Source: a virus
Lineage: Duplodnaviria; Caudoviricetes
Virus record (IMG/VR): IMGVR_UViG_3300010399_000044
Span: 1-56,124 of that record
Strand: one strand, 5' to 3'
Length of the DNA: 56,124 bases
Shown: piece after piece, positions 360 through 55,193 of the stretch
Layout of the letters: each line of letters starts with the position of its first letter
Position numbering within the stretch: position 1 is the stretch's first letter
Program-made: the position numbers and the translations under genes
Notes under the pieces: generated by a model
The model's database searches: none
The model's input: the letters and a program-made list of their open reading frames with translations, nothing else
What the model was told of the DNA's origin: nothing

Positions 360-659
360 ATGGGTTGGGAAACCTCAACTAGACAACTCCCTCCAAACTG
401 GTCCGCTTTGAGGCGGACCATCCTGGCAAGGGATGGAAATACATGTCAACTCCAATACCCAGGTTGCTCCCAAAGAGCAACCGATGTTGACCATATCGTC
501 CCTGGGGACGATCATAATCTCAACAACCTCCAAGGAGCTTGTAGCTCCTGCCATAGTATCAAATCCTCCAGAGAAGGAGTGTTTGAACGTATCCGAAGGA
601 AGAGGTTGACCAAGAGACCTACAGAACACCATCCGGGCCTCAGGAAGGCCCGTAACTAG
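360..659 (+). CDS. HNH endonuclease (packaging-associated)
   Basis: RDGNTCQ..C..ATDVDHI..GDDH.L.NLQGACSSCH; AAGGAG RBS; lies just before the small terminase. Confidence 0.9.
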   Translation: MGWETSTRQLPPNWSALRRTILARDGNTCQLQYPGCSQRATDVDHIVPGDDHNLNNLQGACSSCHSIKSSREGVFERIRRKRLTKRPTEHHPGLRKARN

Positions 660-675
660 ACTCCCAGGAGGAGTA

Positions 676-1101
676 ATGGCTAAGATCACCGGTCCAGTAC
701 CGAAGCGCAGCGAAGATCGGATTCGTCGGAATGCCGATGTCATTCCGATCGAGAAGCTAGCAGCCGCAGGACTGGTTATCGCTCCGGAACTTGCTCTGGA
801 CGACCCACACCCAATGGTTGTGGACTTTTACTACTCCTTGAAGGAGTCGGCTCAGGCTCGCTATTACGAGCCTTCGGATTGGCAGTACGCCAGGTACGTC
901 ATGTACCACATCAACAAGCTACTCCGACAAAAGAACCCGAGCAGCGTTATGTTCGCTGCTATCAACACTGCTCTTTCCAACCTCCTGATTACCGAAGGCG
1001 ACCGACGTCGCGTTCGTATCGAGGTCGAACGAGAAGGCAAGGAAGCAGATATCACGGATATTGCTACCTACTTCCGAGAGCGTGCACAGAAGTCCGCGTA
1101 A
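676..1101 (+). CDS. terminase small subunit (L5 gp5-like)
   Basis: GPVPKRSEDRIRRN N-terminus, YEPSDW and LLITEGDRRRVRIEVER motifs; AGGAGG RBS. Confidence 0.8.
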   Translation: MAKITGPVPKRSEDRIRRNADVIPIEKLAAAGLVIAPELALDDPHPMVVDFYYSLKESAQARYYEPSDWQYARYVMYHINKLLRQKNPSSVMFAAINTALSNLLITEGDRRRVRIEVEREGKEADITDIATYFRERAQKSA

Positions 1102-1185: not shown

Positions 1186-1833
1186 ATGACCGACCCAATC
1201 AAGGGGATTGACGTATCGTCCCTTCAGGGGACGATCAATTGGCTAACCCTGAAGAACACAACCGATATCAAATTTGGTATCACCCGAGTCACCCGAGGAC
1301 TGGCAGAGGTTGACACTGCCGCGCAAGCAAATTATGCGGGCATGTACCAGAATGCCATTCTTCCGGGAACCTATCACCGAGCGTTTGTCGATCAGGGTTC
1401 GCCTGAGAAGCAGGCTCTCCATTTCGCCACCAACTTCATGAGAGTCACCTACCGTGGTGACATGATGCTTCCTCCTGCTCTGGACTACGAAGACCAGAAG
1501 CCGGGCAAGGAGTTCTGCCAGCGATTCATCGCAGCCTTCCGGGGTTACACCGGCATCGAAGAGATGCTGATCTACACCTCCGGATCGTTTGTTGACACCT
1601 GGCTTGGTAGTGAGTCGTGGATGGACGACAAGACACACTTGTGGATCGCGGATTATGGCACCTTCACAGGTGCTACTCCAGGATTCCCGAAGTACAAGAC
1701 CGACAGGGTATACATCCACCAGTACACAGCTTCCCTGAAGCTGGGACCCAACGGGGTCCCTGGCAACTCGGCTGGAAACACCGATGGCGATGTATCAACC
1801 AAAGACCTACACGAGATTGCGATTCGACGTTGA
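1186..1833 (+). CDS. GH25 muramidase (lysin A, glycoside hydrolase part)
   Basis: GIDVSSLQGTINW, GTYH, LPPALDYED, IYTS, LWIADY, IHQYT motifs. Confidence 0.9.
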   Translation: MTDPIKGIDVSSLQGTINWLTLKNTTDIKFGITRVTRGLAEVDTAAQANYAGMYQNAILPGTYHRAFVDQGSPEKQALHFATNFMRVTYRGDMMLPPALDYEDQKPGKEFCQRFIAAFRGYTGIEEMLIYTSGSFVDTWLGSESWMDDKTHLWIADYGTFTGATPGFPKYKTDRVYIHQYTASLKLGPNGVPGNSAGNTDGDVSTKDLHEIAIRR

Positions 1834-2786
1834 GCGATGTTCAGATTCTTGTCAACGAACTAAGAGCACGGGGTGTCGTCGTCCACGAGTGGGATGGCTG
1901 GTACGGCCGTGGTAACGAAGGTACTCCCCAGATCGATATCCGTGGTGCGATCATCCACCACACGGGTTCCAACTACGGCTCGGCCTACGAGGGTCTGGTC
2001 TACAGCAAGCAGGACTGGGCCTACGGCAACGCGCTGTGCAACTTCAGCGGCAACGCAGACGGCTCGGTGACTGTCATCGCCTCCGGTCTTACCTGGCACG
2101 CAGGAGGCGGCTACGGGCCGTCTCAGGGGCCTCTAAGCCCCTACGCGGGGAACCGGAACTACTACACCGTAGGCCTGGAGATCGTGTACCCCGGCAATCA
2201 GCCCATGACGGATGCCCAGTACGCCACCGCCAAGAAGTTCGCCCGTACAGTGGCCGATCTGTTCGCAGACGGTAACCTCGAATATGTTCGAGGTCATGGT
2301 GAGGTCAACGGCAAGGGCTACGACGGTAAGTGGGACCCAGGTTGGACCCAGGGCCTGATGATCGACATGAACTTGTTCCGGAGTCAGGCTGCGGCCATTC
2401 CGGATACCGAACCAACTCCTGAACCTCCAGTCGAAGAAAAGAAGGAATCAATGTTCCAGTCTATTTCTGTTCCAGCCACGCTTCCCGATGTCCTGAACGA
2501 GTCTGTGACGACTCTTCCGTGGCAGGGTGGTAGTGGTGGTATCACGGATGTTTTCGTCAACGTGACTGCGGGTTCCGGTGGCCTCAAGCTCGCTGTTGCT
2601 CAGTGGCTTGTTGCCACCAACGAAAACGGCGTGTGGAAGCGTAAGCCTGTCGATATCGTCCCCAAGGGCACGGTCATCACCGGTTTCGCGGATATGGGTG
2701 GCCAGCAGGCCCCTGAGGGCACCTATGCGGTCTTCCTCCAGTACACGGCGACTGCGGGTGCTTCTCTGATCATCGAGGCCGTGTAA
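1830..2786 (+). CDS. N-acetylmuramoyl-L-alanine amidase (lysin A, Amidase_2) with C-terminal domain
   Basis: IIHHTG, TWHAG, VGLE, RGHGE, KWDPG; TTG start at 1830 overlaps the GH25 stop (TTGA), so the track start at 1617 is unlikely. Confidence 0.88.
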   Translation: MSDVQILVNELRARGVVVHEWDGWYGRGNEGTPQIDIRGAIIHHTGSNYGSAYEGLVYSKQDWAYGNALCNFSGNADGSVTVIASGLTWHAGGGYGPSQGPLSPYAGNRNYYTVGLEIVYPGNQPMTDAQYATAKKFARTVADLFADGNLEYVRGHGEVNGKGYDGKWDPGWTQGLMIDMNLFRSQAAAIPDTEPTPEPPVEEKKESMFQSISVPATLPDVLNESVTTLPWQGGSGGITDVFVNVTAGSGGLKLAVAQWLVATNENGVWKRKPVDIVPKGTVITGFADMGGQQAPEGTYAVFLQYTATAGASLIIEAV

Positions 2787-2789
2787 GCC

Positions 2790-3380
2790 GTGGAATCCAG
2801 GCTTTTCGACCCCCTGAGTCCGCCTGAGTGGATTGACCCACTCTGGTGGGTCGATCAGCCCCATGTGAACCACATCGACAACCGTGTGCACCAGGCTCGC
2901 TTGATCTCGGCTGCTGAAACAGCAATGGCGCTATCCGACCAACTCGGTGGTGTTGCTATCTGTGATATCGGCTCGTGTGATGGCGGACTGCTTGAACTGA
3001 TCCGACCCGAGTACACAGCCTTCGGGTACGACGTAATCCAGATCAGCATCAAGTACGGGCGTGAAGTTCGCGGGGTGGATCTGCGTTACGGCAACGTGAC
3101 AGGAAACCCCAAGCTCGAACTTGCCCCTGTCCTTGTGTGCACCGAGATGCTGGAACACCTCAAGGACCCTCACGGGTTCCTGAAGGAGCTACGACGTGCT
3201 AGTATCGAGTACGCCATCTTCTCGTCTCCGCATTCGGAGACAGCCCAGTACCACGAGTGGAATCACGCATGGGCCTGGGATCGAGAAGGATACGCCAATA
3301 TGATCACAGACGCGGGGTGGGAGATCGTATCCCATATCGATGTCGAGTGGTCCCAACAGATTGTTGCGAAGAACTCATGA
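2790..3380 (+). CDS. class I SAM-dependent methyltransferase
   Basis: ICDIGSCDGGLL, GYD, CTEMLEHLKDP, FSSP motifs. Confidence 0.85.
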   Translation: MESRLFDPLSPPEWIDPLWWVDQPHVNHIDNRVHQARLISAAETAMALSDQLGGVAICDIGSCDGGLLELIRPEYTAFGYDVIQISIKYGREVRGVDLRYGNVTGNPKLELAPVLVCTEMLEHLKDPHGFLKELRRASIEYAIFSSPHSETAQYHEWNHAWAWDREGYANMITDAGWEIVSHIDVEWSQQIVAKNS

Positions 3381-3442
3381 GCAACATCCAGTAAGCCGTA
3401 ATACCCAGTTCGGAGCCAGTCTGGGAATCAAAACGGGCACAG

Positions 3443-3514
3443 ACCGTGCGCGCAGTGCGCAGGGAGTCTCATAAGCTCCTTTTTGTCGTGGTGCAAATCC
3501 ACGGTGCGGTACCA
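3443..3514 (+). tRNA. tRNA-Met(CAT), atypical with a minimal D-arm
   Basis: acceptor ACCGTGC/GTGCGGT-A-CCA; anticodon arm GGAGT-CTCATAA-GCTCC; T arm CGTGG-TGCAAAT-CCACG; D arm only GCGC-AGT-GCGC. Confidence 0.7.
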
Positions 3515-3598
3515 GATCGAGAGGGCACTACAGGACCCCTCCGGAGCGCGAACCCAACCTGTAGGACGGGTTCTACAAATCCGGCTTGTCTCGATCCA
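3515..3598 (+). ncRNA. candidate structured ncRNA with complementary loops
   Basis: closing stem GATCGAGA/TCTCGATC; inner stems AGGG/CCCT, CCGGA/TCCGG, GAACCC/GGGTTC; loops CTACAGG and CCTGTAG are complementary. Confidence 0.55.
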
Positions 3599-3599
3599 C

Positions 3600-3674
3600 G
3601 TGTGGTTAGCTCAGTCTGGTCAGAGCGCCTCTCTGATGAAGAGGAAGTCATCGGTTCAAATCCCTTACCACACA
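3600..3674 (+). tRNA. tRNA-Ile(GAT), weak T-stem
   Basis: GTGTGGT/ACCACAC; TAGCTCAG; CCTCT-CTGATGA-AGAGG; GGTTCAAATCC. Confidence 0.8.
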
Positions 3675-3675
3675 C

Positions 3676-3749
3676 GCCCCTCTAGTCCAATTGGCAGAGG
3701 CGCTCGGCTCAGACCCGAGATGATCGCAGTTCGAATCTGCGGAGGGGTA
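3676..3749 (+). tRNA. tRNA-Leu(CAG), short variable loop
   Basis: GCCCCTC/GAGGGGT; CTCGG-CTCAGAC-CCGAG; GTTCGAATC. Confidence 0.85.
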
Positions 3750-3769
3750 CAACCAACGATTGGAAGAGG

Positions 3770-3859
3770 ATGAATTTTCAAGACGGTGCCCATATTTGTT
3801 TGTGTGACAGTCCCCGCAACCCCAACTGCCAGAAGTGCGGGATGCCCTGCCACTGTTAG
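3770..3859 (+). CDS. Cys-rich microprotein, 29 aa (MNFQDGAHICLCDSPRNPNCQKCGMPCHC)
   Basis: purine-rich GGAAGAGG upstream; fills a tRNA spacer; 6 Cys. Confidence 0.6.
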   Translation: MNFQDGAHICLCDSPRNPNCQKCGMPCHC

Positions 3860-3865
3860 TACAAT

Positions 3866-3941
3866 CGCTCATTAGCTCAGTCCGGAGAGAGCACCAGGCT
3901 ACGAACCTGGGTTTGCGGAGGTTCAAATCCTTCATGGGCGG
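3866..3941 (+). tRNA. tRNA-Arg(ACG)
   Basis: CGCTCAT/ATGGGCG; CCAGG-CTACGAA-CCTGG; GGTTCAAATCC. Confidence 0.9.
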
Positions 3942-4027
3942 CATGACTTTAGTTGGCAGTAAACTCGGGGATGAGGAACTGTCTATGGTCCGGCGATGCC
4001 GTTCGCGGTGTATCGAGTGGCCTGTAA

Positions 4028-4099
4028 TCCAGCATAACTCAACGGCAGAGTTCCGACCTGTTAAGTCGGCGGTTCTTGGTTCGAATCCAAGTGTTGGAG
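4028..4099 (+). tRNA. tRNA-Asn(GTT)
   Basis: TCCAGCA/TGTTGGA; CCGAC-CTGTTAA-GTCGG; GGTTCGAATCC. Confidence 0.92.
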
Positions 4100-4101
4100 C
4101 A

Positions 4102-4178
4102 GGAGGGATGCCGAAGTGGACGAGGCACCGGTTTGTGAAACCGGTATCAGTGGGTTCGAGTCCCACCCCTACCGACCA
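4102..4178 (+). tRNA. tRNA-His(GTG), imperfect acceptor stem
   Basis: CCGGT-TTGTGAA-ACCGG; GTGGG-TTCGAGT-CCCAC; acceptor GGAGGG/CCCTACC has a bulge. Confidence 0.75.
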
Positions 4179-4193
4179 CGTCAAGGAGGATAG

Positions 4194-4265
4194 ATGAAGT
4201 ACGAAGTATGCATGGGTGGCTGTGGTGGTACGACACAGACCTGTACGTGTGAAGGAAAGCGATAA
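4194..4265 (+). CDS. Cys-rich microprotein, 23 aa (MKYEVCMGGCGGTTQTCTCEGKR)
   Basis: perfect AAGGAGG RBS; 4 Cys. Confidence 0.65.
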   Translation: MKYEVCMGGCGGTTQTCTCEGKR

Positions 4266-4267
4266 GC

Positions 4268-4348
4268 ATGGCAGACCCAGCTTGCCCGAGGTGTCACGGT
4301 ACCGGCTTCTTTTGGATGCTGGGCTCGTGGCGTCCATGTGGGTGTTAA
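4268..4348 (+). CDS. Cys-rich microprotein, 26 aa (MADPACPRCHGTGFFWMLGSWRPCGC)
   Basis: starts 2 nt after the previous stop; GAAGGAAAG upstream; CxxCxGxG...CGC. Confidence 0.65.
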   Translation: MADPACPRCHGTGFFWMLGSWRPCGC

Positions 4349-4355
4349 TCCCAAC

Positions 4356-4431
4356 CGTCCATTAGCTCAAGTGGTAGAGCAGGAGCTTCTTAAGCTCTCG
4401 GTTCCAGGTTCAAGTCCTGGATGGATGACCA
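4356..4431 (+). tRNA. tRNA-Lys(CTT)
   Basis: CGTCCAT/ATGGATG-A-CCA; GGAGC-TTCTTAA-GCTCT; GGTTCAAGTCC. Confidence 0.92.
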
Positions 4432-4499
4432 CACAGCACGGTGCTGTTACCAGCCGGAACGTTTGATTCCGGGGGTCCGTGTGCGAGGAATACAGGCAA

Positions 4500-4574
4500 T
4501 GCTGATTGGTGTAACTGGCAACACGGGTGGCTCTGAACCACCTGTTCTAGGTTCGAATCCTAGGTCGGCAGCCA
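4500..4574 (+). tRNA. tRNA-Gln(CTG)
   Basis: TGCTGAT/GTCGGCA-G-CCA; GGTGG-CTCTGAA-CCACC; GGTTCGAATCC. Confidence 0.92.
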
Positions 4575-4575
4575 A

Positions 4576-4651
4576 GGGGACATAGTTTAGGTGAGCAAAA
4601 CAGCGGTCTCCAAAACCGCAGTGCGAGGTGCAAGCCCTCGTGGCCCCGCCA
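4576..4651 (+). tRNA. tRNA-Trp(CCA)
   Basis: GCGGT-CTCCAAA-ACCGC; CGAGG-TGCAAGC-CCTCG; encoded CCA end. Confidence 0.85.
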
Positions 4652-4652
4652 A

Positions 4653-4726
4653 GCCGTTGTAGCTCAATATGGTAGAGCACCCGCCTTGTAAGCGGGTGGT
4701 TCGGGGTTCAAGTCCTCGTTGCGGCT
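4653..4726 (+). tRNA. tRNA-Thr(TGT)
   Basis: TAGCTCAA..GGTAGAGC; CCCGC-CTTGTAA-GCGGG; GGTTCAAGTCC. Confidence 0.88.
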
Positions 4727-4785
4727 CTTGTTCAGAAAAACCTCGTGTTCAAGTTTTCTGAACAGCACCACAAAATGAACACGCT

Positions 4786-4857
4786 GTGGGTGTAGCTCAG
4801 GGGTAGAGTGCCTCATTTGGGATGAGGAAGTCGTGGGTTCGAAACCCGCCTCCCGCA
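4786..4857 (+). tRNA. tRNA-Pro(TGG)
   Basis: TAGCTCAG..GGTAGAG; CCTCA-TTTGGGA-TGAGG; GGTTCGAAACC. Confidence 0.88.
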
Positions 4858-4880
4858 CGTTTGACAAGGGGGTGATGTAA

Positions 4881-4940
4881 GTGCGGCAGTCTTTTTGCCC
4901 GGTCTGTGGTAAAGACACAGACCTTAACTGTGGTTGTTAG
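4881..4940 (+). CDS. Cys-rich microprotein, 19 aa (MRQSFCPVCGKDTDLNCGC)
   Basis: AAGGGGGTGA RBS before GTG; CxxC...CGC-stop like its neighbours. Confidence 0.6.
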   Translation: MRQSFCPVCGKDTDLNCGC

Positions 4941-4975
4941 TTTCAGTCATGACTAAACTCTTAGAACGGATCATC

Positions 4976-6448
4976 ATGGTTCTCCCAGCCTCTGTGCCTA
5001 CCGGCACCGTGACCGGCACCTGGTACACCCCCGCAGGGGCGTTGGCTGTCGGCACCATCGTGTTCCTCCTTCTGGAGTCGATCGAGATCCCCGACGACGC
5101 AGACGGGGTCGTGCTGCCTGTCAGGACCGTTGTAGACGTCCCCGCAGGCCAGTTGAACCAAACCCTCCCAGCAGGCACCTATCAGGTCTCCATGAGGCTC
5201 TCAGAGCTGTATAGGGCAACCAAGGTCGTGGCGATCACCGCAGGGGAAGCCCTGAACCTCCCCGATGCTGTAGGGATGCTTCTTCCAGACCCTGATCTGT
5301 ATGATCCGGTGCGCAGTGTCGATGGTTATTTCCCCGACGCCTATGGGAATATCGATCTCCCAGGCGGAGGCGGGGGCGGAGTTACGGACCACGGCGAACT
5401 CACAGGACTTGCAGACGACGACCACAGCCAGTATTTGACCACTACACGTGGTGATACTCGGTATTACACCAAGTCACAGTCGGATACGAGCCTCGCAGGC
5501 AAGGAGAATACCGGAGTAGCAGCAGGTCTTCTGGCGGCTCACGTCGCAGCAGCAGATCCTCATACCCAGTATCTCAAGGAAGCCGATGCAGCTCCGGTTG
5601 CTACGGCAGGTACTTATGCGAGTCTTACAGGTAAGCCAACCATTCCAGCACTGAGCGATGTTGCCGCACTTGTTGTGGGGCAGTCTAACTCAGCCGGTAC
5701 AGGAACAGCCTCTTCCAGGGAAGACCACACCCATAATGGTGTTCCTCAGTCTTTGCTGACCACCAAGGGCGATCTTGTTGTTGCTACCGCGAACAACACG
5801 GCTTCTCGGGTTGGCGTGGGTTCCAACGATCAGGTCCTTACTGCCGATTCCAGCACCGCAAGTGGTGTGAAGTGGGCAACCCCTTCGGGGGGTTCAGCCC
5901 CATTGTCGGAATCCGACTTCAACGGCTTCGCCGCGTGGAGTGGTGATCCTCTGTATTGGATGACCCGATCCGGGGTTGGTAATGGTGACGCTTCTGTTGT
6001 GCGTCTACCAGTCCAGGCAGGAAAGGCCATCAACAAGCTGTGGATTGCTGTGTCAACCGCCGGTTCTTATTCCGCCAACGGTGTTCCCAACCAGATGGGT
6101 ATCTGGGACGACACAGGAGCTTTGCTATCGCTGACTCCTGATGACCCGACATTGTACACATCCAATGGGTGGCGTTCGGGAACCCTGGTCACTCCGGTGG
6201 CTGCGGGTGCAGCCCGATTCTGCTATGTGGGTTTCATCCTGGGTGGTATGACCGGAGTCCAGTTGTTCTACCCCTCGTCCGCGAGTCTGGTAGGGGCAAC
6301 AGCCGAAGGAAACATCATCAACGGCGGTAACGAAACCAAGAGGCGCGCAGCCTACTTGACTTCGCAGACCTCCCTACCAAGTTCATTCACGCCATCAAGT
6401 GTTGGCACCGTAACCGCGTATATTCCGCTGGTTGCCATTTCAAGCTAA
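4976..6448 (+). CDS. minor tail/fibre-like virion protein
   Basis: VRSVDG, poly-G linker, DHGELTGLADDDHSQY, AHVAAADPHTQYL, TTKGDL fibre motifs; start chosen among 4934/4949/4976. Confidence 0.7.
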   Translation: MVLPASVPTGTVTGTWYTPAGALAVGTIVFLLLESIEIPDDADGVVLPVRTVVDVPAGQLNQTLPAGTYQVSMRLSELYRATKVVAITAGEALNLPDAVGMLLPDPDLYDPVRSVDGYFPDAYGNIDLPGGGGGGVTDHGELTGLADDDHSQYLTTTRGDTRYYTKSQSDTSLAGKENTGVAAGLLAAHVAAADPHTQYLKEADAAPVATAGTYASLTGKPTIPALSDVAALVVGQSNSAGTGTASSREDHTHNGVPQSLLTTKGDLVVATANNTASRVGVGSNDQVLTADSSTASGVKWATPSGGSAPLSESDFNGFAAWSGDPLYWMTRSGVGNGDASVVRLPVQAGKAINKLWIAVSTAGSYSANGVPNQMGIWDDTGALLSLTPDDPTLYTSNGWRSGTLVTPVAAGAARFCYVGFILGGMTGVQLFYPSSASLVGATAEGNIINGGNETKRRAAYLTSQTSLPSSFTPSSVGTVTAYIPLVAISS

Positions 6449-6457
6449 GGAGCATCA

Positions 6458-8134
6458 ATGGGTTCGCCACCTCTTGCTCCTGCACCGGCTCACATCGTTG
6501 GCCCCACCTGGCAAAGGCTGGAAAATGGGGACTTCTATCTCCCCGAATTTACTCTGGGGGACGAGATCGTCAACTGGATGTGGAAGTATGTGGTCCAGCC
6601 TTCTGGGCCACGTGCGGGAGAGAATTTCCTTGTAACCGAGGAACAGTTCAGATTCCTACTGTGGTGGTACGCCATCGATGGTATGGGAAAGTTCATTTAC
6701 CGAAATGGTCTTCTACGCCGACTCAAGGGTTGGGGTAAGGACCCGCTTGCGGCGGCCATGGCGCTCGCAGAGCTGTGTGGTCCGGTCCAGTTCAGTCACT
6801 GGGATGAAAAGACAGGTAGGCCCGTGGGGAAGCCAAAGGCTTCGGCATGGATTCAGATCGCTGCGGTGTCCCAGGACCAGACTCGTAACACGTTCACCCT
6901 TTTTCCGGCTATGGCCTCCAAGGTCATGAAGGAAGAGTTCGGACTTGAGGTTCACAAGACCATCATCTATTCGCGTGCGGGTGGGATGATCGAGTCGGTA
7001 ACGTCAAGTCCGCTTGCTCTTGAGGGCAAGCGTCCAACCTTCGTCATCAAGAATGAGACCCAGTGGTGGATCGAATCCAATCAGGGTCTTGAAATGGCCA
7101 ACATCATCCGAGGTAACGTCACCAAGGGTGCTTACGGCACGTGTCGTTCTCTGTCGATCTGCAATGCTCACCGTCCTGGTGAGGAATCGGATGCGGAACG
7201 GGACTGGGACGCGTGGCAGCAGCAGCAAGCAGGTGAGGCTGTAAAGACCGGTTTCCTCTACGATGCACTTGAAGCTCCTGCGGACACACCAGTCGGTGAA
7301 ATCGCTGAGCTGATGGAAGACGAAGAGGCGTACCTAGCAGCCATTCAGCGGCTCCGTGAGGGCCTGGAAATCTGCAAGGGTGACGCGGACTGGCTAGACA
7401 CGGACACGATCGTAGAATCGATCCTGGACGTGCGTGAAGACGTCACGGAGTCACGACGCAAGTTCCTGAACCAGATCAACGCAGCCGAAGATGCTTGGGT
7501 GTCTCCACGAGAATGGGACAAGTGCCTGGGTGTCAAGCTGGAACCGCTCCGTCCTGGTGACCGTATCACCATGGGATTCGATGGTAGTAAGTCCTCGGAC
7601 TGGACAGCCCTGGTGGCGTGTCGAGTAGAAGACGCGGCTATCTTCCCCATCAAGATTTGGAATCCGGAGAAGTACGGCGGTGAGGTTCCTCGCGAGGATG
7701 TGAACAACACGGTGGACTGGGCATTCGCTCAGTATGATGTCGTGGGATTCAGGTCTGACGTCAAGGAATTCGAATCGTATGTTGATGCCTGGGGTGCTGC
7801 GTATGGAAAGAAGCTGAAGCTCAAGGCAACAGCCAAGCACCCAGTTGCGTATGATATGCGTTCCAACATCAAGGCGTTCACACTCGATTGCGAGCGCTTC
7901 CAGGATGCGGTTCTTGAACAAGAACTGGTCCACAACGGCGACGTCGCGCTTCGACGGCACGTGTTGAACGCCATCCGGCGTCCAAACAACTTTGGGATCT
8001 CCATCAGTAAGGCTACCAAGGACTCATCGCGGAAGATTGATGCGGCAGTCTGTGCGGTGCTTGCTTTCGGAGCCCGACAGGAGTTCCTTATGAGTAAGTC
8101 GAATAAGAAGAAGGGAGTTGCAATCCTGCGATGA
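6458..8134 (+). CDS. terminase large subunit
   Basis: RRLKGWGKDP Walker A, NETQWW, GFDGSKSSDWT, KIDAAVCAVLA. Confidence 0.97.
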   Translation: MGSPPLAPAPAHIVGPTWQRLENGDFYLPEFTLGDEIVNWMWKYVVQPSGPRAGENFLVTEEQFRFLLWWYAIDGMGKFIYRNGLLRRLKGWGKDPLAAAMALAELCGPVQFSHWDEKTGRPVGKPKASAWIQIAAVSQDQTRNTFTLFPAMASKVMKEEFGLEVHKTIIYSRAGGMIESVTSSPLALEGKRPTFVIKNETQWWIESNQGLEMANIIRGNVTKGAYGTCRSLSICNAHRPGEESDAERDWDAWQQQQAGEAVKTGFLYDALEAPADTPVGEIAELMEDEEAYLAAIQRLREGLEICKGDADWLDTDTIVESILDVREDVTESRRKFLNQINAAEDAWVSPREWDKCLGVKLEPLRPGDRITMGFDGSKSSDWTALVACRVEDAAIFPIKIWNPEKYGGEVPREDVNNTVDWAFAQYDVVGFRSDVKEFESYVDAWGAAYGKKLKLKATAKHPVAYDMRSNIKAFTLDCERFQDAVLEQELVHNGDVALRRHVLNAIRRPNNFGISISKATKDSSRKIDAAVCAVLAFGARQEFLMSKSNKKKGVAILR

Positions 8135-22829: not shown

Positions 22830-22840
22830 GTCTAGAACGC

Positions 22841-22878
22841 AAAAAAGCCCCCACCTCATCGAGGTGGGGGCTTTTCTT
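22841..22878. terminator. bidirectional intrinsic terminator between the two arms
   Basis: AAAAAAGCCCCCACCTC-ATC-GAGGTGGGGGCTTTT. Confidence 0.92.
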
Positions 22879-22885
22879 GTTTAGA

Positions 22886-22951
22886 TCACCACTGGTTGCA
22901 CCAGCATCCGTCCTTGCAACCGCATTCGGAACAACCGCCTGTGTTATTCAA
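22886..22951 (-). CDS. Cys-rich microprotein, 21 aa (MNNTGGCSECGCKDGCWCNQW)
   Basis: TTG start overlapping the upstream ORF end; 5 Cys. Confidence 0.5.
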   Translation of the reverse strand: MNNTGGCSECGCKDGCWCNQW

Positions 22952-23480: not shown

Positions 23481-23571
23481 CGTCTTCCTTGTCCAGTTCC
23501 TGATGCAGCCTCTTCTGGATCTTCTCGACCAAGTCCTCCGGAGGAGGATCGTCGTCTTGTGGTTTGCTCAC
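23473..23571 (-). CDS. acidic microprotein, 32 aa (MSKPQDDDPPPEDLVEKIQKRLHQELDKEDDD)
   Basis: GTGA overlap; GAGGT RBS. Confidence 0.65.
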   Translation of the reverse strand: MSKPQDDDPPPEDLVEKIQKRLHQELDKEDDD

Positions 23572-23654
23572 TGTCCCCAACCTCTTCCTGTGCAATCGTC
23601 ACCGCATGAACTTGCGTCTCGACCACCGCAGTGGTCACACACGTACTCGCTCAC
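23568..23654 (-). CDS. Cys-rich microprotein, 28 aa (MSEYVCDHCGGRDASSCGDDCTGRGWGQ)
   Basis: GTG start inside the end of the upstream gene; CxxC..CxxxC. Confidence 0.55.
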   Translation of the reverse strand: MSEYVCDHCGGRDASSCGDDCTGRGWGQ

Positions 23655-38553: not shown

Positions 38554-39483
38554 TTAGAAATCACCGTCTGCTACCTGAAGTACTGTCAACCCAATGGAAC
38601 GGTAAGCCGCAACAACCCTGTTGCGGTCGTCGTATGCCCGCTTGATGTTCCAGTTACCCCTGATGTGCTTGTCGAAGAGTTCCAGCTTCACGACCGCATC
38701 GTTGCGGGTGTCGCCTTCCGAACGCATGAATAGTCCTGCAATAGGAACCTTGACTTCCTGGTACAACCACTCCTCGGACACCCCGAAGAACTTGTGACTA
38801 CGACCAGACCCGAACACGATCTTGTTTCCGAGGTCGTAGTACTCGTGCCTCACGATGTCAATGATGGGGAGGTTGGGCTTGTCCAGGTGATACCTGGAGG
38901 TGTCGTACGGGCCTCTCACACCATCGTGGAGAGCCACAGTCCCATCGATGTCCACCAGCACCGCGTCTGGCAGGCTGGTGTCCGGAACGTACAACTCATG
39001 CTGTGGGATCGTGAACTTCCCCCGCACAGCAGGCTCAACCGGAGTCTTGCCTTGGAGTGGGGTGACGTAGCGCTGGAACATGTTCCGGATTACATCTTCC
39101 GGAACGGGGTGTTCGCGCTTGGAGTTCCTTTCCAAGCAGGTTTCCAGCGGAACCCAGGTGAAATCTACCTGGCACCACTCCACACCAAGACGCTCTGCGA
39201 TCAAGGCCAGAGGCCTACGGTACGCAGTCTTCAGGTTGCAGTCGTGAACAACAACCCGAAGGCCACGACTCAAAGCCTTGTCGATCATCGAGTGTTCCAG
39301 TGCCGTGATCTCGTTCTCCTGATCCGAGGTCAGACCCAGCTTGGTACCGTACAGGGTCAGCCTCAGGTCATCCCTGGAGATGGCCACAGCCTCACCAGGA
39401 GGAAGACTCGCTACGATCTCTCGTGCGAAGGTGGTCTTCCCAGAACCGGGAAGACCCACACAGATGTACAGCTCCCCGCTCAC
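38554..39483 (-). CDS. polynucleotide kinase/3'-phosphatase (T4 PseT-like)
   Basis: GLPGSGKTT, RDD.R, DIDGT HAD motif, SGR, DDR. Confidence 0.95.
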   Translation of the reverse strand: MSGELYICVGLPGSGKTTFAREIVASLPPGEAVAISRDDLRLTLYGTKLGLTSDQENEITALEHSMIDKALSRGLRVVVHDCNLKTAYRRPLALIAERLGVEWCQVDFTWVPLETCLERNSKREHPVPEDVIRNMFQRYVTPLQGKTPVEPAVRGKFTIPQHELYVPDTSLPDAVLVDIDGTVALHDGVRGPYDTSRYHLDKPNLPIIDIVRHEYYDLGNKIVFGSGRSHKFFGVSEEWLYQEVKVPIAGLFMRSEGDTRNDAVVKLELFDKHIRGNWNIKRAYDDRNRVVAAYRSIGLTVLQVADGDF

Positions 39484-39599
39484 TTCTCTTCTCCCTCTTG
39501 TGCGAAGGGGTCCTCATCCGGACCGCAGGTCAGACAGAACACAGATCCGCAAGGCCCCCAAGTTCCGTCTTTCAACTGGGTGTTTCCGTTGCAGTTCAT
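39480..39599 (-). CDS. Cys-rich microprotein, 39 aa
   Basis: MNCNG...PCGSVFCLTCG; 4-nt overlaps on both sides. Confidence 0.55.
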   Translation of the reverse strand: MNCNGNTQLKDGTWGPCGSVFCLTCGPDEDPFAQEGEEK

Positions 39600-49083: not shown

Positions 49084-49293
49084 TTACTGAAACACAGGCC
49101 AGGGCTCGGACTGGATCGGGCTGTCTGCGCTTACCATCTTGTGGTATGCAACCCAACCCGCCAAGAACCCCTGAATCACATCCGGAGTCATGTTGTCGAC
49201 CCTGTGAACCCTGGTAATCCCAAACCCGTGGATCGTCAGATCACGACCATTGGCGAGGGTGACGGTCCATCCGTCACTCTGCATCTGGATCAT
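49084..49293 (-). CDS. hypothetical protein
   Basis: TGATG overlap. Confidence 0.55.
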   Translation of the reverse strand: MIQMQSDGWTVTLANGRDLTIHGFGITRVHRVDNMTPDVIQGFLAGWVAYHKMVSADSPIQSEPWPVFQ

Positions 49294-49400
49294 CAGTACC
49301 AGCCCTGACCCGAACACGTCTGGCACTCGTCGCCGTCAGGGTTCACGCCAGATCCGCCGCAGTCTCCGCACTTCTTCCTCGGGCTATGCAAGTTAAACAT
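49293..49400 (-). CDS. DnaJ-type zinc-finger microprotein, 35 aa
   Basis: CGDCGGSG...CQTCSGQG; GAGGA RBS. Confidence 0.7.
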   Translation of the reverse strand: MFNLHSPRKKCGDCGGSGVNPDGDECQTCSGQGWY

Positions 49401-54888: not shown

Positions 54889-55193
54889 TTCAACTCTCCT
54901 GAATGCAGACTCGAATTGCCACCCAAGACCGTGCTAAAGGCACCGTAGCGCGGACCGAAGTCGACTCAACAGAACCGATGGCACGGGCAAGGGAAGCATT
55001 TCAAACCTTAGCCCTGTCAATCTCAACTTGAACTAGTATCACCAAAACTCCCGTGGGACAAGTCACCACCAGCTATGGCTTTACAGTCTAGGAGACCTAA
55101 CAGGATTTCTGCCGGGGCTGTCAGCAGGTTGTGCAAGACTCAGTGTTGAGTGGGCGCTTACTGCGCCACCTCTAGGCTCAACGCTTGCATATG

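Follow-up and report, generated by a model that had tools for sequence, protein, structure and literature searches.

Conserved cysteine-rich micro-genes in the tRNA gene array of a phage genome as candidate minimal metal-binding knuckle proteins

Spacers between tRNA genes are usually deemed non-coding, and the tRNA array of one virus genome raises the question of whether they can hold genes. The genome, from an uncultured soil actinophage, is the complete IMG/VR virus record IMGVR_UViG_3300010399_000044 (Duplodnaviria; Caudoviricetes), which we analyzed over its whole length of 56,124 bp (55% G+C) and call the window. Four very short, Cys-rich open reading frames (ORFs), called P1 to P4 here, are interleaved with or directly follow its ten tRNA genes. 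A preliminary description made from the letters of this DNA alone took them for a family of metal-binding or disulfide-rich micropeptides. Are they genes, do they belong functionally with the tRNAs, and what might their products do? The explanation we favor, with a probability of roughly 0.7, is that they are translated micro-genes for knuckles with a single four-Cys (Cys4) site, probably for Zn, that they are expressed from the tRNA operon transcript, that they are carried as short-homology cassettes, and that their products are binding modules acting in trans.

All four ORFs were recovered at exactly the coordinates and with exactly the translations given previously (Table 1), and tRNA calls by ARAGORN and Rfam confirmed that none of them overlaps a tRNA gene. 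The purine-rich ribosome-binding sites claimed for them were found as Shine-Dalgarno-like leaders at all four, and P1, P3, and P4 do end in CxC followed directly by the stop codon. Cys makes up 15-21% of the peptides. P1 lies 19 nt downstream of tRNA-Leu and 6 nt upstream of tRNA-Arg, and the P2-P3 pair 15 nt downstream of tRNA-His and 7 nt upstream of tRNA-Lys. The ATG of P3 is 2 nt downstream of the P2 stop codon, and P3 is probably translationally coupled to P2; apart from this coupled ORF, the leaders of the window ORFs measure 15-22 nt from the upstream tRNA.

We determined how often such ORFs arise by chance. The pattern was defined as Cx2-3C, 3-25 further residues, and CxC, with the last CxC no more than 4 residues from the C-terminal end. 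In six frames of the whole window it fits 5 of 730 ORFs of 12-45 amino acids (aa), and 4 of these 5 lie in the 1.3-kb tRNA array. The fifth is a minus-strand ORF at 22886-22951 (or from 22963), which the preliminary description had also named. Across 5000 dinucleotide-preserving shuffles of the six spacers, matching ORFs numbered 0.0014 on average compared with the 4 observed, and two or more were found in 0 of 5000. The expectation that four hits of one pattern are unlikely by chance was thus borne out, and a chance origin of the four ORFs is excluded.

To ask whether the ORFs are maintained, we compared them with IMG/VR contigs reached through the flanking methyltransferase and terminase genes. 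A homologous array was present in 7 of the 8 loci found by the methyltransferase gene and in 6 more found by the terminase; four contigs carry two locus names (L003=L010, L006=L012, L002=L014, and L005=L021). Our eight-array comparison consists of the window and L002-L008. P1 and P2 occur in the same four of these arrays (window, L002, L003, and L006), P3 in six (all except L002 and L008), and P4 in three (window, L003, and L006), with an identical sequence each time. Loss of the frame or of Cys codons in homologous spacers had been named beforehand as the observation that would speak against the ORFs. We looked for such losses and saw none: every copy of an ORF retains its frame, its length, and each of its Cys codons.

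Changes inside the ORFs are mostly synonymous (34 of 39 when pooled, P about 1e-18). All 13 internal variable sites of P2 are synonymous third positions (binomial P=2.8e-9), and in pairs with L002 the proportion of synonymous differences (pS) is 0.76-0.90 versus a proportion of nonsynonymous differences (pN) of 0; the window and L002 differ by 11 synonymous and 0 nonsynonymous changes (Sd 11, Nd 0). P3 has 10 synonymous changes out of 12 (binomial P 1.3e-5; pS 0.24-0.36 versus pN 0-0.017). In P1 the figure is 5 of 7 variable sites (binomial P 2.6e-3; pS 0.14-0.26 versus pN 0-0.029), and both replacements lie upstream of the first Cys so that every Cys is kept. A 15-aa ORF found in the arrays of relatives behaves similarly, with 6 of 7 changes synonymous (binomial P 2.4e-4; pS 0.77 versus pN 0.029). 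Start codons swap among ATG, TTG, and GTG between contigs, ATG and TTG in the case of P2, and the Shine-Dalgarno sequence is retained.

Four soil and freshwater sequencing runs from other studies gave a similar picture. Among the differences listed for these runs, those within the ORFs are at third positions, with a single exception downstream of the last Cys of P2, where a Glu codon is replaced by a Pro codon, and none is an insertion or deletion (indel); P1 differs at 3811 and 3850, third positions only. The Arg-Asn spacer, which has no ORF, shows 1-, 2-, and 3-nt indels and clustered substitutions in the same runs. The length of this spacer varies from 44 to 108 nt among contigs, compared with a constant 115 nt for the P1 spacer in 4 of 4 carriers. 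Contigs from other runs also join across 223-249 nt, with replaced sequence, right after the P3 stop codon. Together, the comparisons show that purifying selection acts on the ORFs over the whole of each peptide, that they are true protein-coding genes, and that it is the Cys pattern that they conserve.

A skeptical reader might hold that these are not genes at all and that the ORFs arose by chance or the spacers are kept as signals for RNA processing. All four are too short for gene callers, and a word search among 5.8 billion proteins returned no homologue of a 41-aa relative. Against this stand the shuffle result, the three-periodic substitutions, and the retention of start codons and Shine-Dalgarno sequences. 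The ORF spacers also have no excess of RNA structure, with fold z-scores of 0.03, +1.83, and -0.93 relative to shuffles, and an Rfam search of the array spacers found no RNA family besides the tRNAs. Because the ORF spacers fold no better than shuffles and Rfam recognizes only tRNAs, conservation as RNA structure is unlikely, and we find the idea that the ORFs are not genes scarcely credible.

The same substitution data bear on the proposal that the ORFs are sensors acting in cis, where ribosome pausing at Cys codons would tune downstream processing or expression and the peptide itself would play no part. Mycobacteria have short ORFs that bring about attenuation in response to Cys, according to 10.1101/834739, and the P4 stop codon is only 8 nt upstream of the ATG (4949) of the next gene, which encodes a 499-aa protein. 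However, the Cys codons are in knuckle spacing rather than consecutive, and the non-Cys residues (G, P, T, and aromatics) are protected equally, as the 13 of 13 synonymous changes in P2 illustrate. With their Shine-Dalgarno leaders, the window ORFs are not leaderless, and 3 of the 4 precede tRNAs and not a regulated cistron. A purely cis-acting function is thus very improbable.

Where the ORFs are missing, the arrays show how they may come and go. In the three relatives that lack P1 (L004, L005, and L007), the Leu-Arg spacer is 3 nt long, a difference of 112 nt. This P1 cassette is bounded by a 6-nt direct repeat (Table 1), and the empty site in L004 and L007 has a single GTACAA. The same three relatives lack P2, and there the AAGGAGG of P2 serves P3, which starts with GTG. 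P4, which has a Shine-Dalgarno sequence of its own, occupies a 66-nt insertion that is missing in L002, L004, and L007. L002 has a different 28-aa ORF (CPDC...CEC) in the position of P3, and L004, L005, and L007 have a 31-aa paralogue of P3 in the Gln-Trp spacer. The order and content of the tRNAs vary among close relatives as well (window versus L002-L008 and L015-L023): His, Lys, and Gln swap positions, and one sub-clade has an additional Tyr-Phe-Val.

A second sub-clade, with terminases 88-91% identical and arrays of 13 tRNAs, has its own set of such ORFs. All 6 arrays contain a 40-41-aa ORF with two CxxCxG(xG) knuckles and the 15-aa ORF (CKDC...C[VA]C), which fills a 52-nt spacer; 2 of the 6 also have a 28-aa ORF (CPDCHGTG...CHC). 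Two of the six arrays contain a 111-aa HNH-type endonuclease ORF in the Trp-Thr spacer (L015 875-1210, L022 4177-4512); it starts 2 nt past the tRNA end, and this spacer is 3 nt in other relatives. Two more Cys-rich ORFs occur in L008, the most distant relative. One of them (4074-4196, 40 aa) begins at the first base past tRNA-Val and looks metallothionein-like, with an initial CxCxCxC run and a CxxC. Over all arrays, the leaders fall into two classes: 14-22 nt with a Shine-Dalgarno sequence, or zero nt past the tRNA end in four ORFs of relatives, where the tRNA end called by ARAGORN is one base beyond the discriminator. In Rhodococcus phage Weasels2 (L155), annotated protein genes likewise begin on the final tRNA bases: the XRE regulator gene at 4800-5096 shares 2 nt with tRNA-Arg, and the HNH gene at 6234-6803 shares 1 nt with tRNA-Phe. 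By these array comparisons, the ORFs behave like small cassettes, acquired and lost via short-homology indels.

We then examined whether the peptides resemble anything known. An alignment on CPxC/CxxC...CxC joins P3, P4, the 15-aa ORF, and the ORF of L002. The suggestion that all belong to one family therefore stood for P3, P4, and several ORFs of relatives, and did not hold for P1 (CxC..CxxC..CxC) and P2 (Cx3C..CxC), which share the general layout only. The 40-41-aa relatives score 23.2 and 25.4 bits on DnaJ_CXXCXGXG (PF00684), below the cut-off of 32.7, and longer relatives match the solved cysteine-rich domain of DnaJ (PDB 1exk) at E 0.012 and reach 14-18 bits on Anti-TRAP (PF15777), below its cut-off of 32. 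P1-P3 themselves had no match to PF00684 at E<=10. In deposited phages, tblastn with P3 and P1 gave nothing significant (best E 0.1 and 2, respectively).

P3 has a broader set of relatives. A pattern scan followed by a profile search found its module, D-P-x-C-P-x-C-x-G-T-G...C-x-C, for which we took membership to be an invariant C-P-x-C-x-G-x-G, 8-30 residues, and C-x-C. P3 fits this definition, P4 has CPxC...CxC without the xGTG, and P1 and P2 do not fit. Among 1.84 billion representative proteins, the profile matched 313 at E<=1e-3 and none at E<=1e-10. Most of these proteins are 40-120 aa long with the module at the N-terminus, and in 2 of 10 longer matches it forms the C-terminus of phage replisome-organiser proteins. 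In all 24 members collected, to which P3 aligns over its entire length, the invariant residues are C, P, C, G, G, C, and C, and a comparison of these 24 with curated families found none that covers them. Five unrelated viral loci with stand-alone module genes showed no recurrent neighbor (GIY-YIG endonuclease; UDG and a Pol A exonuclease domain; ParB-N and a methylase; glycosyltransferase). By these alignments, P3 is the minimal, 26-aa form of a widespread and uncurated small-protein module.

The natural reading of CPxC(xGxG)...CxC is that of a predicted metal-binding knuckle. A model of the 31-aa paralogue built from 28 aligned sequences has a knuckle followed by a β-hairpin that leads into the CxC (predicted local distance difference test score, pLDDT, 73). 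Look-alikes of this paralogue in the ESM Atlas are unnamed clusters (best 0.87); a virus-rich cluster labelled Anti-TRAP at 0.76 is a lead only.

Metal binding could also mean buffering, as the preliminary description had allowed. Peptides like metallothioneins, chiefly P1 and the ORF near 22.9 kb, would then sequester or deliver Zn or Cu during infection instead of docking on a protein. The CxC and CxxC clusters and the high Cys content are of this kind, as is the CxCxCxC run at the start of the L008 ORF. However, P1-P3 match no metallothionein family (Pfam, E<=10), P3 keeps bulky aromatics (FFW, W), and the non-Cys residues are under selection. Four Cys per peptide also suit one structural site better than a metal cluster. 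We regard buffering as distinctly unlikely.

Whether the peptides have a role tied to tRNAs depends in part on where else such ORFs occur. Three lie in the right arm of the window (Table 1). The 28-aa Cys4 micro-ORF, far from the tRNAs, keeps all four Cys in 4 of 4 full-length relatives (G001-G004) at 71-96% aa identity, and the 35-aa ORF has homologues in G001 and G002 at 72-74% identity. The 21-aa ORF at 22886-22951 had been described as looking related to the array peptides. Its pattern does fit; however, it is missing in 4 of 4 full-length relatives, where the stop codon of the last right-arm gene leads directly to the terminator, and it therefore has no comparative support. The insertion, of about 57 nt, is specific to the window. 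Between the convergent arms, at 22836-22878, lies a strong hairpin rich in G+C; it has U-runs on both strands, is kept in relatives, and looks like a bidirectional terminator. The right-arm coding strand also has a Cys-rich 39-aa ORF at 39480-39599 (-), with a weak match to the Pfam family Antifungal_pept (E 0.009, below the cut-off), and a Cys-rich 12-aa ORF at 54966-55004 (-).

Outside this clade we found no link between the motif and tRNAs. A pattern search in other actinophage tRNA arrays, which had been proposed as a check, turned up no Cys-rich micro-ORF in the three unrelated arrays covered: in Weasels2, Magritte, and Tonenili, 0 of 16 ORFs of at least 12 aa (27 spacers, 3,344 nt) had three or more Cys. 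Two isolated relatives, Naca and Dinger, lack such micro-ORFs; their tRNAs, 1-3 in number, are tightly packed. For the 45 shortest motif ORFs listed from 118 unrelated viral loci, a tRNA lay within 5 kb only in a relative's own contig.

These observations weigh on the proposal that the peptides inhibit tRNA-targeting defence, as first suggested, or modulate the enzymes that process the phage tRNA precursors, with P3-type peptides able to cap the Zn-link half-site of RNase E and so change its assembly. In E. coli, RNase E starts the cutting of polycistronic tRNA precursors, and the CPRCHGTG of P3 equals the RNase E Zn-link consensus CPxCxGxG. The Zn of this link is described in PMC2631609 as shared by two protomers and needed for tetramer formation. 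In Pfam, the start of RNase_E_G_Thio also aligns weakly with residues 5-15 of P3 (E 0.18), and the spacers are occupied in two sub-clades by different ORFs in different places. However, the motif also defines the DnaJ cysteine-rich domain, on which the longer relatives score better, and is not specific to RNase E. The full motif is in P3 and not in P1, P2, or P4, and P3 has four Cys of its own, making metal sharing unneeded. Conserved Cys4 micro-ORFs lie far from tRNAs, and three other actinophage arrays have none. A predicted complex of the 31-aa paralogue with E. coli RNase E residues 280-529 and Zn scored 0.01, which is not evidence either way. We consider a tRNA-linked role unlikely, and the sequence evidence as a whole leans against a tRNA-specific role of the peptides. 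One version of it would have RNase P and 3' processing release mini-mRNAs of 50-180 nt, a release already supposed in the preliminary description; in relatives some would begin at the start codon or no more than one base from it and be effectively leaderless, and at least the CPxCxGxG peptides would cap the half-site of the host RNase E. This combination of tRNA punctuation with feedback on the processing machinery seems decidedly improbable to us; if it were true, peptide output would be coupled to tRNA-precursor processing.

The explanation we prefer is that of single-site knuckle micro-genes carried in the array as cassettes. Each 19-29-aa peptide would fold around one metal ion, probably Zn2+, held by four thiolates from an N-terminal CxxC or Cx3C knuckle and the C-terminal CxC. 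Because the ORFs lie in a co-oriented tRNA operon and have their own Shine-Dalgarno sequences, with P3 coupled, we infer that they are co-transcribed with the tRNAs and would be translated from the tRNA precursor or its processing fragments. This phage clade appears to place Cys4 knuckle micro-proteins in any free intergenic slot, be it a tRNA spacer, the end of the right arm, or a site within it, which would make the tRNA array a permissive, well-transcribed landing site and not the target of the peptides. By analogy with single-knuckle zinc mini-proteins, the most likely role is a trans-acting one, in which each peptide would be a small rigid module that binds a partner protein of the host or the phage.

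Several points weigh against this explanation. P4 is identical in 3 of 3 copies and so allows no substitution test of selection. The comparison set consists of a few closely related contigs, and the substitution counts are not fully independent events. Searches of Pfam and PHROGs with P1-P3 and the peptides of relatives found no family. A search of sequencing runs for this stretch listed no RNA run that contains it, which is a blank and not a negative result. The fold model is moderately confident and is of a relative's paralogue rather than a window peptide, and the 31-residue model had no match in the PDB with Foldseek and VIA-align. That tRNA spacers are used repeatedly in two sub-clades could also mean that the ORFs are functionally tied to how the tRNAs are expressed or processed.

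The array is located in the left arm of the genome, and the gene order there (Table 1) places it inside a late, co-oriented lysis, packaging, and structural block. Rhodococcus phage RGL3 and Benedictvirus-type Mycobacterium phages have large terminases 65% identical to that of the window, and a DNA-level search of deposited phages, among which near records may be missing, found no close relative of the window, the matches being tRNA-sized only. Preceding the first tRNA are 200 nt without genes (3400-3599) that contain a terminator-like hairpin at 3461-3481 followed by the T-arm-like GGTGCAAATCCAC. This stretch is kept in relatives and variable in other sequencing runs (112-nt skip with replacement), has no match in Rfam, and may be a decayed tRNA. 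The Thr-Pro spacer (4728-4785), which most relatives have and whose fold z-score is -1.54, contains a 10-bp inverted repeat (GTTCAGAAAA...TTTTCTGAAC); an overlapping 16-aa ORF has replacements among relatives and is probably non-coding.

Table 1. Positions in the window of the micro-ORFs, their leaders and repeats, and the surrounding genes.
Feature	Position	Strand	Remarks
P1, 29 aa	3770-3859	+	Leu-Arg spacer; 6 Cys and 2 His (CxC..CxxC..CxC-stop)
P2, 23 aa	4194-4265	+	First cistron of His-Lys spacer; 4 Cys (Cx3C..CxC), ending CTCEGKR-stop
P3, 26 aa	4268-4348	+	Second cistron of His-Lys spacer; ATG start; CPRCHGTG...CGC-stop
P4, 19 aa	4881-4940	+	After tRNA-Pro; GTG start; CPVCG...CGC-stop
Shine-Dalgarno-like GGAAGAGG	3762-3769	+	Abuts P1 start; seen as GGATGAGG in L002 and L003
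Shine-Dalgarno AAGGAGG	4183-4189	+	4 nt upstream of P2 start
Leader GAAGGAAAG	4251-4259	+	Upstream of P3
Shine-Dalgarno-like AAGGGGGTGA	4866-4875	+	5 nt upstream of P4 GTG; found only with P4
GTACAA, left copy	3747-3752	+	6-nt direct repeat bounding the 112-nt P1 cassette
GTACAA, right copy	3859-3864	+	Overlaps last base of P1 stop codon
21-aa ORF, CSECGC..CWC	22886-22951	-	TTG start (25 aa from GTG 22963); between last right-arm gene and inter-arm terminator
28-aa Cys4 micro-ORF, CxxCGG..Cx3C	23568-23654	-	Right arm, far from tRNAs
35-aa ORF, two CxxCxGxG knuckles	49293-49400	-	Right arm; DnaJ_CXXCXGXG 21.9 bits, below 32.7
HNH endonuclease	360-659	+	Left arm
Small terminase	676-1101	+	Left arm
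GH25 lysozyme	1186-1833	+	Left arm
Amidase	within 1617-2786	+	Left arm
Methyltransferase-domain protein	2790-3380	+	Left arm
Ten tRNA genes, Ile-Leu-Arg-Asn-His-Lys-Gln-Trp-Thr-Pro	3600-4858	+	ARAGORN; Rfam tRNA model 38-62 bits
499-aa protein	4949-6448	+	Next gene after P4; no Pfam family match
Large terminase	6458-8134	+	Left arm

Zinc-finger micro-proteins are already known, as are ORFs inside phage tRNA clusters. What is new here is the extreme size of 15-31 aa, the selection shown on ORFs that fill tRNA spacers, and the tie between P3 and a large uncurated module family. In the literature we searched, with subscription journals and supplementary files outside its scope, we found no account of Cys-rich micro-ORFs in actinophage tRNA arrays. 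Genes of 15-31 codons escape gene callers, and in the sources searched none of these carries an annotation; here comparative data alone show their selective maintenance in a phage. One 56-kb genome has at least six conserved micro-genes, with comparative support for P1-P3 and for the right-arm 28-aa and 35-aa ORFs and with P4 identical wherever it is found. The four window ORFs are among the smallest conserved phage genes, and tRNA spacers can thus hold genes. If they do bind zinc, few natural autonomous zinc-knuckle proteins would be smaller than these peptides, which would be useful as minimal scaffolds. The array also provides a clean system for asking whether tRNA processing liberates translatable mini-mRNAs in bacteria.

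The tRNA-punctuated mRNAs of mitochondria are mostly leaderless. As described in PMC12242768, tRNA excision frees mRNAs in that system, and the phage ORFs share with it that they are directly bounded by same-strand tRNAs and that four ORFs of relatives begin at the first base past a tRNA. The difference is that each window ORF either has a Shine-Dalgarno leader of 15-22 nt or is coupled to the ORF before it. The polycysteine short-ORF attenuators of mycobacteria (10.1101/834739) are likewise very short, Cys-rich, and actinobacterial. Their Cys codons, however, form consecutive runs, their starts are leaderless, genes of Cys metabolism lie downstream of them, and what matters there is not the peptide, whereas the phage ORFs have spaced Cys and selection on the whole peptide, and downstream of the window ORFs are tRNAs or the 499-aa protein.

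Protein genes within phage tRNA clusters show that insertion of ORFs is tolerated there. The segB gene of T4 is reported in PMC2330249 to lie in a tRNA cluster, and HNH genes lie between tRNAs in Weasels2, Magritte, L015, and L022. These homing endonucleases have about 100-220 aa and promote their own spread, whereas the micro-ORFs have 15-41 aa and no nuclease features.

The DnaJ (PF00684) and Anti-TRAP (PF15777) families have in common with our peptides the CxxCxGxG knuckle, and the longer relatives and the right-arm 35-aa ORF reach 22-25 bits on PF00684. Anti-TRAP is a 53-aa zinc protein that acts purely by binding another protein. DnaJ has four motifs and two Zn sites; by contrast, P3 has one CxxCxGxG plus CxC, P1, P2, and P4 have no complete one, and all scores are under the curated cut-offs. 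Database members of the P3 module are at least 39 aa long and usually have a tail past the CxC, whereas P3 stops at the CxC and does not share the replisome-organiser context.

The C(P)XCG zinc-finger micro-proteins of haloarchaea (Haloferax volcanii, and Brz of Halobacterium) are presented in PMC11241148, PMC10716476, PMC6562870, and PMC2253796 as proteins several of which bind zinc and have regulatory or adaptive roles. The analysis showed no sequence homology between them and the phage peptides. The haloarchaeal proteins have about 40-70 aa and two C(P)XCG motifs, whereas the phage peptides have 15-31 aa, are viral, and are encoded in a tRNA operon. P4 (CPVCG), P3 (CPRCHG), and P1 (CQKCG) have one such motif each, and in all four peptides the second half-site is CxC. 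What the two groups share is a stand-alone protein of less than 70 aa with little beyond a Cys4 site and, as in P3 and P4, CPxCG-type knuckles.

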